From the IMG/VR virus record IMGVR_UViG_3300029928_000270: a DNA stretch of 63,123 bases. One strand, given 5' to 3'. Below the pieces are notes generated by a model. It worked only from the letters and a program-made list of their open reading frames with translations. It ran no database searches and was not told where the DNA came from. Positions 31,804 through 56,025 of the stretch are shown here, one piece after another. The stretch comes from an uncultured virus (IMG/VR IMGVR_UViG_3300029928_000270). Lineage: Duplodnaviria; Heunggongvirae; Uroviricota; Caudoviricetes. The position numbers were made by a program, and so were the translations under genes. Position 1 is the stretch's first letter; every line of letters begins with the position of its first letter.

Positions 31804-31832
31804 TTGACTTTTGTGTAGTTTCATGGTATAAT
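31804..31832 (+). promoter_or_regulatory. sigma-A-type promoter of the Tas-like gene
   Basis: TTGACT-17-TATAAT with TG. Confidence 0.8.
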
Positions 31833-31905
31833 TATTTCATAATAAATCGTTGGGGGCGGACAAGCTCCCAGTGATAAAAACAATAGAATATGGAGGTAGT
31901 TAACT

Positions 31906-33177
31906 ATGGTAGTTAATGAAGTAACTGGCAAGACAAGTGCAGTTGACGATGTAGTAAAGACTCAGATAAGAAATCTCATCGGAACACTGTATGGGATTCA
32001 GGAAGTTCGTATTGGAACGGGTAACCGCTTAACGGCTCAGTTCAGACAGACCTTGGGTATTGCACCCTCTGCAAAGGCTGAGGATGCGGATAAGGAAGTG
32101 GCTAAGATTTTAGCTACTCTCAAAGAGGATTACAACCGTATCACGGACGGTATTGCCGAGAACAACTATTCACTGAAGAAGCAGATTTCCTTATTGCTGA
32201 AAGATGATAAAACTCCCCTTAAGGCGGTTAGGGACACCACGGATTACAGTTTAATCCGTTCCTATATGTTTCTTTTGGACTCCGAGGCGGAACTTACTAA
32301 GGTTCTTGATACATATGTAAAGAGTCATCCGTTGTGGGATGCGTTCTTTGAGCAGGTTAAGGGTTGTGGCACTTTGATGAGTGCGGTATGTATCGGTTAC
32401 TTAGACCCTTACAAGGCACCTCATGTATCCAGCTTCTTCCGTTATGCAGGTCTTGATGTCGTTCAGGATACTGACAAGAGTGGAGAGCAGTTGTGGTTGG
32501 CAATCCATGATGGGTATCGTGTTGTAAGACAGAGATACACATACATCTACAAGTCCACAAAGGAAGATTACATCGGACGTGTAATCGAGAGCAAGGATGA
32601 GGATGGTATCCCCATCTATACCACGGAGACAGGTGAGTACCTTGAGAAAATCGAAGCCATTTCCAAAGAAGGTGACTACATCTTCGAAGACTTAAACGGT
32701 CAGAACCCTTACGTCGGAGCAGTTATTGCCAAGGAACACGGAAGAAGCATGGGTGACACGGAGATGTTCGAGTACACCAGCAAGGATGGCGAACTGAAGC
32801 TCAAGAGAGGTCTTACATACAACCCGACCCTCAAGAGCAAGTTAATGGGGGTACTGGCAAGTTGCCTTATCAAGGCTAAAGACCCGATTTACTACTCGAT
32901 TTATACAGAGTACAAGAACAGACTGAACAATAGCCCTCGGTATGACAAGTATACCAACGCCAGAAAGAATAACATGGCTGTAAGGTACATGATTAAGCAG
33001 TTTCTGAGAAACCTTTGGGTTGTTTGGAGAGACCTTGAAGGGCTTCCTGTAGATGCTCCTTATGAAGTTGATAAGTTGGGCAGAGAACCTCATCATGTAA
33101 ATGCTTACCAGTACTGTGTGGCTACGGGTACTAAGAAGTCTTACAAGGACTACTGTAACAACTTCAACGAAATCTAA
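31906..33177 (+). CDS. Nop/IS110-related RNA-binding protein; TIGR-associated Tas-like protein without RuvC/HNH (TasA-like)
   Basis: Coiled coil (IQEVRIGTGNRL), VKGCGTLMSA HhH, SSFFRYAGL, YNPTLKSKL, ARKNNMAVRYMIKQFL; no N-terminal DEDD; adjacent dual-spacer array. Confidence 0.8.
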   Translation: MVVNEVTGKTSAVDDVVKTQIRNLIGTLYGIQEVRIGTGNRLTAQFRQTLGIAPSAKAEDADKEVAKILATLKEDYNRITDGIAENNYSLKKQISLLLKDDKTPLKAVRDTTDYSLIRSYMFLLDSEAELTKVLDTYVKSHPLWDAFFEQVKGCGTLMSAVCIGYLDPYKAPHVSSFFRYAGLDVVQDTDKSGEQLWLAIHDGYRVVRQRYTYIYKSTKEDYIGRVIESKDEDGIPIYTTETGEYLEKIEAISKEGDYIFEDLNGQNPYVGAVIAKEHGRSMGDTEMFEYTSKDGELKLKRGLTYNPTLKSKLMGVLASCLIKAKDPIYYSIYTEYKNRLNNSPRYDKYTNARKNNMAVRYMIKQFLRNLWVVWRDLEGLPVDAPYEVDKLGREPHHVNAYQYCVATGTKKSYKDYCNNFNEI

Positions 33178-33183
33178 GAAATA

Positions 33184-33218
33184 AACTGGAGTGGGTATTT
33201 ACTCACTCCAGTTCTTTT
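33184..33218. terminator. Hairpin between tas-like gene and array, possibly a bidirectional terminator
   Basis: AACTGGAGTGGGTA-TT-TACTCACTCCAGTT; CTTTT follows on +, TATTTCTT follows on -. Confidence 0.7.
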
Positions 33219-33231
33219 AACAAAACACCGA

Positions 33232-35172
33232 AGTTATTTCATGACCGTATAGTGTATCAGGCTTATAAAGTAGTTTCAAACAAAGGGAGTGTATCTTATA
33301 ACAAAAGTAATTACGTAGTGAAAAAGTGTATCGTATTAAGGTAGTATATCAGAAGTAACAAGTTGTTGCATTGTACATGAGTGTATCCTTTGGAAAGAGT
33401 AGTTTCATGCGGTAAAAGTGTATCATTTGGAAAAAAGTAGTTTCTTGCGGTGTAAGCGAGCATACTTAGGTTTGCAAATTTTGGGTATTAAGTTTTAGTG
33501 TATCATAACATAATAGCTATTGCTTACAAAGAAAGTGTATCGAGGCATACAAGTATTTTCATTGAGATTTAGTGTATCGGAGGTTTTGAGTTGTTTCTAT
33601 GTCATAAAGTGTATCAAGACGAGTTAGTATTTTCGTTAGTATTAAGTGAGTCAAGAAGTAAAATTATTTTCATAGTTCAATAGCGTATCATAGGAGGAAG
33701 TTATTTAAAGTTAGAACAGTGCATCAAGACAATTTAGTTATTTCATTTGTATTAAGTGTATCGTATAATTTAAGCAGTTTCAAGTTATAATAGTGAGTCA
33801 GGTCAAGCAAGTATTTTCAAATGGACAGTAGCGTATCAGATATGAGAAGTTTTCTCATTAGAGTTAAGTGTATCGTATTATAAAGTTTATTTCATAACAA
33901 GTAAGTGTATCAGTATGCAAAAGTTATATCATACCAAACAAGTGTATCAGCAAGAAAATTTTGTTTCATGATGATGAAGTGTATCTTCTCTGACCAGTTA
34001 TTGCATTTATGGAAAGTGTGTCGATTCATGTAATCAGAACAAGGGTATTTAGCGTATCAGTAAGTAATAGTTTTTTGCATAGAGGGAAAGTGTATCATTT
34101 CAAGATAGTTATTTCATGGTTAAAAAGTGTACCAAGGTAAAGAAAGTTTATCACATTAAATGGTGTAGTGTATCAAGGCATCGAAGTTATTTCAGCAAGG
34201 AAATCAAGTGTATCATTAATTTCAAGTAATTTCATAGATTATTAGTGAGTCTGCTGTCAAAGCGGTTACATAGGTGTCGAACGTATCGTATATGGAAATT
34301 GTTTTCAGTGTAGTTGAGTGTATCGAAGTAATAAAGCTATTTCGTATAAGTTCAGTGTATCACATGGAAAGAGTAGTTTCACTCGAAGCGAGTGTATCAA
34401 GGGTTTGAAGTAATTACAAATATGTTGAGTGTATCAAAAGGTTCAAGTGGTTGCATATCAACCCAGTGTATCAAAAATTATAAGTAGTTTCAAAAAATTT
34501 CAAGTGTATCAGGACTTGTGATAGTGAGTCGTTTAGAAAGAGTGTATCGGTATTATAAAGTGATTTCAATCGTTAAAGTGTGTCGGTTTACTTAGTGAGT
34601 CATAACATGTAAGCGTATCAAGACAATACAGTTGTATCGTTTGGTTTTAGTGTGTCATCTTTAACCAGTACTTTCATGGAAATCCAGCGTATCAGTATAT
34701 TAAATTTATTGCACATGCAGTTAGTGTATCAGATTATGGAAGTCATATCATCGTACTCAAGTGTATCAATATTTTAGAGTCATAGCAAAAATAGGTAGTG
34801 TATCATAGTATTATAGTTATCTCAAAAATCATCAGTGTATCAAAAGGAGGTATTGGTTTCAAATCAGATTAAGTGTATCAGTATGGAATAGTTATCTCTC
34901 AGTTGTTAAGTGCATCATAATAATTAAGTTATTTCATTTATGGTTAGTGTATCAAAGTGTAAAAGTTTTCACAATAAAGAAGAGTGTATCAATTCTGTTG
35001 AGTAGGTTATTGCATTTGAGTGTATCACGTTGGACGAGTAATTTCTATTAAATGCAAGTGTATCAAAGTTGATGATTAGTTCATATGCATTTAGTGTATC
35101 CGAAGTTGAGAGTAGTTTCAAATTTCACCAGTGTATCATGAGTATAGATTGTTTTCATGAGTAGTGAGTGTC
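33232..35172. ncRNA. TIGR-like tandem interspaced guide RNA array, about 50 units of 37 nt
   Basis: AGTGTATC(A)-N9-AGTWRTTTC(A)-N9 periodicity with unique spacers; AGTGTATC at 33251, 33288, 33325 ... 35093, 35130; no ORF. Confidence 0.88.
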
Positions 35173-35213
35173 AAGAAGTTGGGTAGTGTTTAAGGCACTA
35201 CCTAATTTCTTGA
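35171..35213. terminator. Hairpin closing the array
   Basis: TCAAGAAGTTGGGTAGTG...CACTACCTAATTTCTTGA. Confidence 0.6.
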
Positions 35214-35563: not shown

Positions 35564-36697
35564 ATGAACTGTTTACGAGTAGTTAAAGAGATATCTGAAG
35601 ATAGACTTTTAGTTTACTGCAATTCATGCAAAAGTTATTTTGCAATGGACAAATACGAGTATAACCGCAATTTACAGGGCGGAGATATACGCAGTTGTAA
35701 ATTCTGTTGCAGAACAAGTTTTGGTGATTATGTTCCTTATTATCATCAAAGATATGGAACTCTGCGTATACTTGCAAAACTATGGGCAGAGTACTCTTGC
35801 TACTTTGTATGTAAATGTGATTGTGGTACATATCTTACAGTAGAAAGTTCTTATCTCACAAGTGGGTATGCATTTTCTTGTGGTTGCTTCAAGAGAAGAC
35901 GTCTTATACCTGAGTTTACAGACAAATCAGAGTATGTTTTAACTTCTGAGGATGTAAAGAGTATGGATAGATTGGTGTGCAGTCTGCCCAGAACTTTGAA
36001 GCCAAAGACAAAGGTATATAAGTTAGCTGATAATGAAACTAAACCCGAGATAACTCTTAAGAGTTTAGTGACACAGTATTCTGTTGAGGGCAATGAAGCT
36101 GAGGGTAGTGTTGCTTCTGCGGAAGTGCAGGAAGAGTCAAGCATGGGTATTGATACTTTCGAGTCGGTCAAGATACATGATATTGAGGAAGAAGTAGTGG
36201 ATGTGGGTATCAAGGAAGAGCCTGAGTTACCTTGGGATGAGCCTAAGAAGCTAACTGTTGAGGAAGTCAAGCCAGTTATGGTTGAAGAAAGCCATAAGTG
36301 TGATGAAGTTGTGGAAGAGTCGAGTGAGATGCAGACTGAGGGTACCATAGGTAATACCACTTTCAATTTTTCAGTTACTACAAACAGTCTTTATGAGAAG
36401 AAGCGTGTAGAAATCAGAGGTAATTTTACGAATGTAGATAAGGTAATAAGAGAAGCAGGTTTTGTAACAAGCAAAGAATGTGACATTTCCAGGGTAGCAG
36501 TTTTCATGAATTGCTTTGAGTCAGATTTAGATAAGATGTTAAGTCTGCATTATACTGGAAAGGGAGATTACTTTGTAAGGTTAGATGAAAACAAAAGAAT
36601 TTCAGACATATGTATGTTTGAAGATGATTGTTTGACTGTATTTCGCAGTTCACAATCCGATGGGTATTTAAGGTTAATAGGAGGTTTATTATGTTAG
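35564..36697 (+). CDS. Zn-binding protein with homing-endonuclease-associated CxCDCG domain
   Basis: CNSC...CKFC; YGTLRIL...VCKCDCG...LTSG...SCGC; acidic linker. Confidence 0.6.
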   Translation: MNCLRVVKEISEDRLLVYCNSCKSYFAMDKYEYNRNLQGGDIRSCKFCCRTSFGDYVPYYHQRYGTLRILAKLWAEYSCYFVCKCDCGTYLTVESSYLTSGYAFSCGCFKRRRLIPEFTDKSEYVLTSEDVKSMDRLVCSLPRTLKPKTKVYKLADNETKPEITLKSLVTQYSVEGNEAEGSVASAEVQEESSMGIDTFESVKIHDIEEEVVDVGIKEEPELPWDEPKKLTVEEVKPVMVEESHKCDEVVEESSEMQTEGTIGNTTFNFSVTTNSLYEKKRVEIRGNFTNVDKVIREAGFVTSKECDISRVAVFMNCFESDLDKMLSLHYTGKGDYFVRLDENKRISDICMFEDDCLTVFRSSQSDGYLRLIGGLLC

Positions 36698-54296: not shown

Positions 54297-54332
54297 TAAC
54301 TTCCCAGTTGCATATATGCTGTAGTTAAATAA

Positions 54333-54361
54333 TAGAGAGCGTCCTAAGACGCTCTCTTTTT
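54333..54361 (+). terminator. Intrinsic terminator
   Basis: AGAGAGCGTC-CTAA-GACGCTCTCT + TTTTT. Confidence 0.8.
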
Positions 54362-54399
54362 ATGAGTATTTTTCTTCTAAGCCAAGTTCGCTTGTATAA

Positions 54400-55890
54400 A
54401 CGAGTGTTTGACTGGACTTTTCTTTTATTTTCGTGGAAGTTTCTGTTTTTATCAATTCTCATGTCTTAAAATACCTTTTAGGTTGTGTCTTTCGGTTTTG
54501 AAATTTTGCTTCAGTTGTGTGTTGAATTTCCTTTGTGTACTGACGCATCCCTACAGGATTAAAGAGCCATTTGTGGGTATTTGTGTCAGGTTATGGTGAG
54601 TTGTTGCTTTTTGTTTGGTGTTGCTTTGTGATTGAGTAGATTGACTGTCATTTGCAGTTAGTCTTATTTAGTTTTTAGTTTTGCAAGTGTGATGCATGTG
54701 CTTATATTGTGTATAGTGAGTTGTTTATATCTTTATTTTTAGTTTGACTGATTTCAAACGTATCTATGCAATGTGTTGAGTGAGTGTTATCATTTATCGT
54801 TTTCATTTAGACTGATTTTATTCTCAGGTTTGAAACTTTTTAGTGATTTGTTGTGTTTGTCATTCTTGTTTAGACTGAGTTGTGTCTTATATTGACTTTG
54901 CCATTCTTACTTTCACTGAATTCATTTTTAGTTATCTGTTCTCCCTCTTACTTTCACTAAATTCGTTTTTGGTTTTGCAACATCAGTATTTAGTTTGTCT
55001 TATTTAGGTTTTAGTTCTACTGAGTTTTCTAATATCAGGGGTTGTTACCTTTACTTATGTTGTATTTTTGTGTGTTCGTTACTTGTCAGTTTTAGTCTTT
55101 TGCTTTACTGCTTTAGTGTTCTTAATGTTGACCTATTTTAGTCTTTAGATTTGGTAGTTTCCTTGTTTGTGCCAAAGATTCATATTGTTCCTTTAGGAGA
55201 ATTTAGTTGTACGTTTTGTGTTTCTATGCTGCTGTAGTTGCAAAGTTGACTGTTATGTTTTGCGTTATTGTCAGTGAAACTTATGCTGAAAGTTGTAGAA
55301 GCGTGGTGTGCATCCTGTTGGGTATTATGGGTGAGTCGTTGTCTGCTGTAGTCGTTTGTGTTATCGATTTTTAGTTTATCTTTCTTGCTATTAGGTGTTA
55401 GCTTGTTAACCAGTTTACTTTTCACATGGAGTGTGTTCCTTTGGTGTTGCAAGAAAACTGGGTATTTGTCAGTCATTTTCCGCTTGTTTATTTTTCGTGA
55501 ATTTAGTTTATTTAGTTGTTTTGTTTTTGGAGTGTGTAGTTACTTTACCTCTTTATTTAGTTCAATTTTTAGAAATTTTGGTTTGTGAATTTGGTTTTTC
55601 GAATTTCTATTTTTTATAGAATTATTTTGTGAAGAAATTGTAACAAATTTTTGGAAAGCATATAAAAATGCCAATTTTTGTTTAATTTACTTGGGTTTTG
55701 AAAAATCCAAGAGTCAACAGGTAAGCCATTTTCGTAACAATTTATGAAGTTACTGCTACACTTGTCACAAATTCTTGGAGAAAAATTCACAAATATCTTA
55801 GAAGTATTTGTTAGTTTTTCTTGTGATATTTAGCTGAAACTTTGATGAATTATGTTTGTATTTATAATAATTTGTTTGTTTTTTGTTTTA
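54400..55890. other. 1.5 kb non-coding T/G-skewed region with short repeats (candidate origin or ncRNA locus)
   Basis: No credible ORF; CTTACTTTCACTRAATTC x2, TTTAGACTGA x3, TTGT(A/C)ACAA-like boxes. Confidence 0.4.
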
Positions 55891-55897
55891 GTTTGTC

Positions 55898-55926
55898 TTG
55901 CCTTTGTTGTAGTTTTATGTTATAAT
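55898..55926 (+). promoter_or_regulatory. sigma-A-type promoter
   Basis: TTGCCT-17-TATAAT with TG. Confidence 0.65.
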
Positions 55927-56025
55927 ATTATTAAGTAAGTTGGGATGGGACAAGCGTTTTAGTTCTGTTCTGTGTTGGTTTTATTTAGACTGATTTTAGT
56001 ATCAGTTTAGCTGAAGGAGGTTGTT

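Follow-up and report, generated by a model that had tools for sequence, protein, structure and literature searches.

The tasA gene and the repeat array downstream of it, in a 63,123-nucleotide stretch of uncultured virus DNA (the window), are best explained, with good confidence, as a TIGR-TasA system with dual repeats that belongs to the FpTasA clade and is carried on a large phage-like replicon. The system type itself is already published, having been described in 2025. Family cutoff, fold, array anatomy, edge pairing and the register of spacers A and B agree in placing the locus in TIGR-Tas, as in the original prediction, and the subtype is now sharpened to TasA. Coordinates are collected in Table 1.

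Table 1. Features of the tasA locus, in window positions.
Feature	Position	Strand	Remarks
Sigma70/sigmaA-type promoter match	31804..31832	+	TTGACT-17-TATAAT, extended -10; consensus match only, 11/12
tasA	31906..33177	+	423 aa; solo Nop-domain Tas protein, no N-terminal nuclease
Beta-rich region at the wedge position	32458..32814	+	Residues 185-303; 119 aa, acidic
Processing-loop codons Y386, R393, H396	33061..33093	+	From alignment to SpTasH
13-bp hairpin with U-rich tail, between tasA stop codon and array	33184..33213	+	-23.4 kcal/mol, z -4.0
Dual-repeat TIGR array	33218..35171	+	52 guide units between two truncated edges
Unit order			Edge AGTGTATCA, spacer A, loop AGTWRTTTCA, spacer B; 37 nt
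5'-truncated edge	33218-33222	+	
First spacer	33223-33231	+	
Guide, predicted target a ribosome-binding site and start codon	33571..33607	+	16/18 to L029 tas start
Guide, predicted target a -10 promoter region	34909..34945	+	17/18 to L028 tas promoter; 15/18 to own
3'-truncated edge	35167-35171	+	
Intrinsic terminator closing the array	35171..35213	+	-31.9 kcal/mol, z -8.6

The tasA product, encoded directly upstream of the array as had been described, scored 115.7 bits against the TIGR-Tas model NCBIfam NF052498, above the cutoff of 100, and phmmer matched it to TaTasR (9mty) at E 6.5e-10. The structures nearest to its predicted model (AF2 pLDDT 88.7) were those of Tas proteins, TaTasR (9mty; Z 18.1, rmsd 2.4 over 200) and SpTasH (21kl; Z 18.0, rmsd 3.1 over 218), compared with Z 12.9 for the IS110 recombinase 9t56. 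In Foldseek, all ten matches at E ≤ 0.001 were TasH or TasR, and the box C/D Nop5 structures 3nmu and 3nvi were also in the list. The Nop/IS110 fold that had been claimed for this protein is thus borne out. The aligned chain ranges begin at 110 (9mty) and 66 (21kl), so the RuvC and HNH domains have no counterpart in the tasA protein, which is helical from residue 10 and whose ORF opens with the first start codon to follow a stop. The lack of a nuclease assigns the protein to the TasA subtype. These results indicate that the tasA product is a TIGR-Tas family member of the TasA subtype, close to the published FpTasA, and by analogy its function is likely RNA-guided DNA binding and repression.

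In the array, a dynamic-programming segmentation yielded 52 edge-type and 52 loop-type repeats, in agreement with the approximately 52 copies of the short repeat counted originally. The alternation of edge, 9-mer, loop and 9-mer was likewise recovered, with spacers of 9 nt in 89 of 104 cases (range 8–13), no two of them alike, loops of 10 nt, and a modal unit of 37 nt (34 of 52 edge-to-edge steps). The periodic, non-coding, dual-repeat character of the stretch stands as first proposed, but its start lies 14 nt earlier, at 33218 rather than 33232. Exact copies of AGTGTATC numbered 35 in 33232–35180, compared with one on the plus strand and none on the minus strand of the remaining window. The base-match autocorrelation reached 0.44 at lags 37 and 74 and had half-period peaks at 18–19, while most other lags gave about 0.28. 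Among 33 regular units, which were picked on the edge motif, positions 1–9 and 19–28 were conserved and both 9-mers were near background. The irregularities are a half unit (edge-spacer-edge) at 33325, degeneration of the unit at 33455, and an edge-like repeat in place of the loop at both 34523 and 34594. The array ends, with their truncated edges and the terminator, match the description of TIGR arrays by Faure et al. (PMC12045711).

Box D and box C (AG...UCA) are common to both repeats. Given an extraction motif that allowed these letters, pairing within the edge is possible for 2:7 in 52/52 and for 3:6 in 46/52 repeats, and the loop box pair in 35/52. Across relatives, the edge exhibited compensatory swaps (C-G, U-A, U-G and G-C, G-U, A-U). 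The array RNA is unstructured (folding z 0.9 and -0.3 for two stretches).

The final bases of spacers A and B were complementary to each other in 166/391 gut-clade guides (null 119) and in 84/244 guides outside this clade (null 62), whereas the loop-first register gave no such signal (99/288, null 90; 47/190, null 48). Since the A9:B9 covariation appears only in the edge-first register, this register is confirmed. For the window array alone, the excess was not significant (14/37, null 9.8, p 0.07). The clade-wide covariation departs from the statement of Faure et al. that spacers lack obvious covariation, and is relevant to the acquisition of spacer pairs.

We regard it as extremely improbable that the locus is instead a bridge-RNA transposase of the IS110 family, or a CRISPR array in decay. 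The protein does match PHROG 4285, annotated as transposase (E 3e-29), and weakly Pfam Transposase_20 (E 0.094), but it reached only 15.3 bits against the IS110 family model, whose cutoff is 140, and it has no DEDD/RuvC N-terminal domain, nothing preceding the coiled coil. The array alternates two 9–10-nt repeats with 9-nt spacers rather than one 25–36-nt repeat with similar-sized spacers, Rfam gave no match at E ≤ 0.1, and no cas-like family was found in the 58 window ORFs scanned against PHROGs, which upholds the earlier remark that the repeats are too short for CRISPR and that cas genes are absent.

The tasA gene was said to have its own promoter, and a consensus match is found there (Table 1). 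This match is assigned to tasA and probably serves the array too; similar promoters precede tas in loci L023–L028. No promoter match was found between the hairpin and the array. The hairpin, which did not figure in the original prediction, may be a leaky terminator or a 3' protector of the tas mRNA; like hairpins follow tas in L014, L029 and L049 and are absent in most of the nine non-gut loci folded. Transcription could end at the hairpin, which counts against read-through into the array.

Judging from published relatives, the TIGR-TasA locus would be expressed as a single transcript that starts at the promoter, covers tasA, reads through the hairpin and ends at the terminator behind the array. 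On each unit, box D (AG) and box C (UCA) would be bound by TasA dimers, and cuts within the edge repeats would release from the precursor about 52 guides of 37 nt (5 + 9 + 10 + 9 + 4). Spacer A would pair with one strand of a 17–18-bp site and spacer B with the opposite strand, with no PAM, and the bound complex would block transcription without cleavage; repression has been demonstrated for MbTasA (Xu et al., 10.64898/2026.09.09.750476). The most likely targets would be mobile elements sharing the cell, chiefly related phages, including gene control regions, which is the least supported step.

For the processing step, Y386 corresponds to SpTasH Y289 and is Tyr in 65/65 homologues, whereas R393 occupies the column of SpTasH H296, which holds N in 45, H in 14, R in 3, Q in 2 and I in 1 of the 65. 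In SpTasH, according to PMC13421893, Y289 and H296 form a C-terminal Tyr/His processing dyad. With Arg393 in the His column, self-processing would require H396, which is His in 65/65 homologues, or a host enzyme; from the alignment, H396 may substitute for the dyad His.

The region at the wedge position, assigned to it by the order of segments that Xu et al. give, spans 119 aa, compared with 33–39 aa in compact relatives and 36 in FpTasA (the latter counted by eye). In addition, the coiled-coil tip is longer than in TaTasR and SpTasH. No recognised PDB or Pfam family was found for the wedge region, Atlas matches of the insertion were all under 0.9, and folding it from the single sequence gave pLDDT 47, too poor for a structure search. 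An origin by internal duplication was considered and found weak (1/6 module pairs, p 0.002). Among the 9,182 rows listed of Table S1 of Faure et al., two motifs of the long-form Tas had no match, and compact relatives were present. If the guides are aimed at rival tas genes, as considered below, the clade-specific beta domain might offer a further surface for contacting DNA beside the site, or RNA polymerase. Together, the 37-nt guide, the displaced catalytic His and the extra folded domain offer a test of the "36-nt ruler" and of the fixity of the Y/H dyad.

The search of spacer pairs against related phage DNA, as had been suggested, gave two near matches, both in the A + rc(B) form: guide 34909 to the L028 tas promoter with a single mismatch, in the final base of spacer B, and guide 33571 to the L029 tas start with two, at A8 and B1. 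The total, however, was at background: over 815 kb of related DNA, 568 guides gave 6 matches at one mismatch and 60 at two, compared with 0–7 and 37–67 in re-paired controls, and the result was the same for gaps of 0 and 1 and when the two spacer matches were allowed to overlap, or to lie apart, by up to two bases. A reading of the window guides as promoter and ribosome-binding-site sequences was dropped, as none of seven motifs was significantly enriched. In exact scans for two guide targets, one had no match. That of guide 33571 had a single one, in the unrelated complete phage G409, where a gene with an HD motif starts; it was rejected as chance-level because the other 46 guides are at background there. 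A repeat-pattern scan of viral contigs gave five stretches, all of them low-complexity coding repeats without tas. The matches of guides to tas control regions are a candidate lead, weakly supported, to natural targets.

These matches raise a special case of the TIGR-TasA explanation, in which guides silence the tas genes of rival phages at the promoter -10 box, ribosome-binding site or start codon in an arms race; we hold it to be possible, though rather unlikely. The tas 5' regions were matched by 2/47 window guides (L028 and L029; null 0.05) and by 2/367 guides of other arrays (L023 to L033/L034 and L029 to L035; null 0.15, p 0.013); over the clade, 4/399 guides matched compared with 0.3 in shuffles, and every match was non-self. 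Counting matches centred in these regions gave 5 guides against 0.41 (0/2090 re-pairings), with other DNA at background (19 against 17.8); 19 further 5' regions with promoters, matched in total length, gave none, and the loop-first register 0/51. However, the tas 5' region was picked post hoc, after the two window matches, reversed and rotated guides gave 3 and 0–3 matches against the 4 observed, and non-window guides at ≤3 mismatches were at background (3 against 2.6). Moreover, TGGTATAAT, present seven times in the window, is a generic promoter core of these phages, the tas ORFs are without any guide match, and in non-gut loci 0/252 guides matched 20 tas 5' regions (controls also 0).

That the guides repress promoters of their own phage, including imperfect feedback on the own tas promoter, is distinctly unlikely. 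Guide 34909 does match the own tas promoter at 15/18 (mismatches at A1 and B9, a wobble at B3) and another window promoter at 15/18, and the self-target search spans 63 of the 191 kb of the replicon. Yet in the 63-kb window outside the array, searched in four arrangements and two registers, 0/52 guides matched at ≤1 mismatch, as expected for non-self targets, and counts at two mismatches equalled those of control arrangements. Likewise, in the complete 70.7-kb relative G003, 0/34 own-type guides matched at ≤2 mismatches, and no other array matched its own tas 5' region at ≤3.

Repression of host chromosomal genes, as host takeover or counter-defence, also seems unlikely. It would accord with the silencing of a chromosomal gene in E. 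coli by TasA (Xu et al.) and with the enrichment of AGGAG/GGAGG in other gut-clade arrays (16/296 against 7.7; p 0.002, uncorrected, one of seven motifs), consistent with gene starts in either host or phage. On the other hand, the GC content of the spacers (29.7%) is below that of the window (38.8%) and closer to AT-rich intergenic or phage DNA, and the sole long array match, to a Lachnospiraceae fliD-like gene, runs without a break through the repeats, contrary to the tandem rule.

Overall, the sequence makes a large phage-like replicon of Firmicutes plausible as the carrier of the TIGR-TasA locus. Replication genes are present, and no virion gene was recognised among the 58 window ORFs scanned against PHROGs. 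DNA likeness to 401 Lachnospiraceae genomes gave gene-level matches and identified no host, and six short Lachnospiraceae matches that were inspected held no CRISPR repeats. An HNH-like neighbour at 35564 was rejected as a conserved partner, Tas alone of 15 window proteins being found in 14 related loci. According to Faure et al. and Xu et al., the natural targets of TIGR systems and their spacer acquisition are unknown. The locus supplies two concrete candidate guide-target pairs, testable by a simple reporter assay; if the targeting of rival tas genes is true, it would name natural targets for dual-repeat TasA and explain the very long, fast-changing arrays of the clade, and without the target lead this is one more TIGR-TasA among thousands catalogued.

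No close relatives were found in viral_contigs or in deposited phages, where the best was at 34%. Hundreds of contigs of 150–400 kb encode relatives. The window edge repeat also flanks tas in L023–L026, L028 and L029, and long arrays are normal in the clade, that of L029 having 102 units. FpTIGR-TasA of Flavonifractor plautii (PMC12045711, Table S1) is likewise a solo Nop protein with the array downstream of its gene. By eye, it shares 36/48 identical residues over 141–188, and its repeats, of the AGTGTACC / AGTAACCC type, include an edge near-identical to that of the window, with 9-nt spacers in both. The tail PYEVxKLGxxPH is also common to both, but the residue after KLG is His in FpTasA and Arg here. 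FpTasA, which binds 36-nt guides (PMC12045711), further differs in its shorter wedge, its 9-nt loop and 36-nt unit, its box C (CCA rather than UCA, a G-U pair) and its array, a 921-character entry compared with about 1.95 kb.

TaTasR (9mty) and SpTasH (9w03, 9w04, 21kl) have the same Nop fold with coiled coil and edge/loop dual-repeat guides, and their dyad Tyr is kept here, whereas the dyad His is out of its column, RuvC and HNH are missing and the wedge domain is large. The IS110 bridge recombinases and box C/D Nop5 share the Nop RNA-binding fold, but the former use one bridge RNA, whereas the window has arrayed guides and no recombinase domain. The stem-loop TasA repressors MbTasA, BlTasA and PlTasA (Xu et al.; Guan et al., 10.64898/2026.08.11.744272) are nuclease-free Tas proteins with large Nop insertions, as here, and by analogy the window TasA is expected to bind DNA and repress transcription as they do, although its array, unlike theirs, is dual-repeat and unstructured. 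In the picture given by Xu et al., dual-repeat Tas proteins are compact and use a fixed 36-nt guide, from which the window clade departs with units of 35, 36 and 37 nt.

Repeat counts, autocorrelation and segmentation showed that the periodic two-repeat array had been accurately described in the original prediction. Autocorrelation peaks at 37 and 74 nt (0.44 versus about 0.28), in agreement with the 37-nt period, and segmentation yielded 52 edge-type and 52 loop-type repeats where about 52 short-repeat copies had been claimed. AGTGTATC is present in 35 exact copies within the array, and the rest of the 63-kb window has one more on the plus strand. All array spacers are distinct, 89 of the 104 being 9 nt long, and 34 of the 52 steps measure 37 nt. 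By the rules of Faure et al. (PMC12045711), AGTGTATCA is the edge repeat, because it is truncated at both array ends and is able to form two pairs (2:7 in 52/52 copies and 3:6 in 46/52, with compensatory swaps among relatives). The hairpin between gene and array recurs in three related loci (L014, L029 and L049).

Boundary features of the TIGR array
Feature	Position	Strand
Truncated edge, array 5' end	33218	+
Truncated edge, array 3' end, running into the terminator	35167	+
Terminator closing the array	35171-35213	+
Second hairpin, between tasA and the array	33184-33213	+

The edge-first register is supported by covariation between spacers A (after the edge) and B (after the loop). With near-duplicate guides and non-9-nt spacers excluded, the last bases of A and B were complementary in 166 of the 391 guides of the gut clade, where the null is 119, and in 84 of the 244 other guides, where it is 62, adjacent-base ratios within spacers being 0.9-1.1 when pooled. 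The window array by itself gave 14/37 (p 0.07), and the other register gave no A/B covariation signal. By an arithmetic estimate, the covariation suggests that about one in six guides has a middle base shared by A and B.

Several irregularities were observed within the array. A half unit that holds a single spacer lies at 33325 and a degenerate unit at 33455, and the loop positions at 34523 and 34594 carry edge-like repeats; all of these may be intermediates in the growth or decay of the array. Two near-duplicate guide pairs (33380-33454 and 33608/33718), one of them adjacent, differ at 3 of 18 positions, which suggests that units were duplicated and then drifted apart. On the minus strand of 33218-35175, loop and edge read together in reverse complement give a -35/-10-like pair with 17-nt spacing in 28 units, so that weak antisense transcription from the array is possible; these pairs may be a side effect of the repeat sequences.

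For the Tas protein, the claimed IS110/Nop RNA-binding fold was upheld, the AlphaFold model (65 sequences, pLDDT 88.7) matching TasR and TasH better than an IS110 recombinase. The model aligned with TasR 9mty at Z 18.1 (rmsd 2.4, 200 aligned) and with TasH 21kl at Z 18.0 (rmsd 3.1, 218 aligned), whereas the IS110 recombinase reached Z 12.9 and unrelated helical bundles 9.7 or less. Likewise, the NCBIfam TIGR-Tas model scored 115.7, above its cutoff of 100, and the IS110 model 15.3, below its cutoff of 140. The nuclease parts of 9mty and 21kl have no counterpart in the model, indicating that the protein is a TasA. A beta-rich region, modelled with confidence, spans residues 185-303 (119 aa, against 33-39 in compact relatives) and matched no PDB or Pfam family; its profile found 9 matches in 1.84 billion representatives, every one alignable to the window Tas.

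On all structural features, the locus is a real member of the dual-repeat TIGR-TasA group; processing and binding at this locus are predicted by analogy. Scoring of 7,999 candidates found 564 relatives, many on 100-400 kb contigs. When 15 window proteins were looked for in 14 related loci, Tas alone was found, indicating that the unit is gene plus array without a fixed partner. The window is identical in sequence to locus L022, part of a 191,202-base metagenome contig. Its genes are of phage replication type, and no virion gene was recognised among the 58 ORFs scanned, so that phage status is one that we infer.

Three further features of the window were noted. The gene at 35564-36697, 3' of the array, has a perfect consensus promoter (12/12) and a weak HNH-endonuclease-family match at residues 62-118; in 14 relatives it was not found next to tas. 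The tas 5' leader carries a small hairpin (31850-31872) with a GCGGACAAGC core, also present upstream of tas in L027, which is possibly a translational control site. Over about 1.7 kb (54300-56025) no ORF reaches 100 aa and there are T-rich TTTAGT-type direct repeats; this stretch may be an origin of replication or a region of non-coding RNA.

The spacer-pair search for targets in the window and related DNA established none. There was no self match at <=1 mismatch within the window, and in 815 kb of related DNA the guides matched at background level. Two window guides were notable for where they match: for guide 34909 the site is the -10 region of the tas promoter in L028 (17/18), and for guide 33571 it is the L029 tas ribosome-binding site and start (16/18). 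In three related phages, a single shared gene has its start and ribosome-binding site matched at 16/18 by a guide from L028 (L024 3551, L025 3876, L026 3443); the counts are within background. In addition, 34150-34178 (loop end, 11-nt spacer and edge of an irregular unit) has a contiguous 28/29 match in one Lachnospiraceae genome among 401 searched (G054:C57:46634-46662; L083 2135-2163), inside a gene that is presumably fliD-like from its sequence and neighbours. Because the search E-values are about fivefold optimistic, this match is borderline chance; if real, the stretch would be captured host DNA.

That guides are aimed at the tas control regions of related phages, TIGR against TIGR, is unlikely, although, across 18 tas 5' regions, 4 of 399 distinct guides match with <=2 mismatches where dinucleotide shuffles give 0.30, and 0 of 2,364 shuffles reached four. 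The two matches from other arrays taken alone gave p 0.013-0.022, and no guide matched 19 other promoter-bearing regions. However, the test was devised post hoc, reversed guides gave 3 matches and rotations 0-3, and 0 of 252 guides from non-gut arrays matched. Moreover, the promoter core is common among these phages, the promoter of 34909's own locus being just 3 mismatches off, and an exact match of 33571 in an unrelated phage illustrates that chance alone can produce such sites. In the literature searched, which included few subscription papers, no paper reporting natural TIGR targets or tas-promoter targeting was recognised from its title or the opening of its abstract. The locus is of note for this testable target lead and for its divergent protein and guide geometry.

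By analogy with relatives, transcription would proceed from the promoter through tasA and read through into the array, the precursor would be cut within the edges to give 37-nt guides on a TasA dimer, and PAM-free binding to a 17-18-bp site would follow. Bound TasA might then repress sterically, as does MbTasA, whose repression is demonstrated by Xu et al. (10.64898/2026.09.09.750476).

Relatives at 43-53% identity retain the same edge, with loops of 8, 9 or 10 nt giving 35-, 36- or 37-nt units. Strict extraction gave 102 units in L029, 56 in L014 and 47 in L003, and the 52-unit length is not special in this clade. The very long arrays of L029 (11222-16150) and L014 (2712-6395) mix 35-37-nt units within one array. 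In the related phages L024, L025, L026 and L028, tas is preceded by two sub-arrays, across which the phages have guides in common with order kept; L026 and L028 have an additional array about 10 kb downstream. The dual-repeat survey of Xu et al. (10.64898/2026.09.09.750476) reports 65,635 guides in 4,126 arrays, and the 52 units here are about three times the mean that these counts give.

Compared with SpTasH, whose dyad residues are given as Y289 and H296 in PMC13421893, the dyad His is displaced in the window Tas: Y386 matches Y289, Arg occupies the H296 column, where 14 of 65 homologues have His, and H396 is invariant. FpTasA, as listed in Table S1 of PMC12045711, is close, with 36 identities by eye among the 48 residues 141-188, and its array repeats, also by eye, resemble those of the window.
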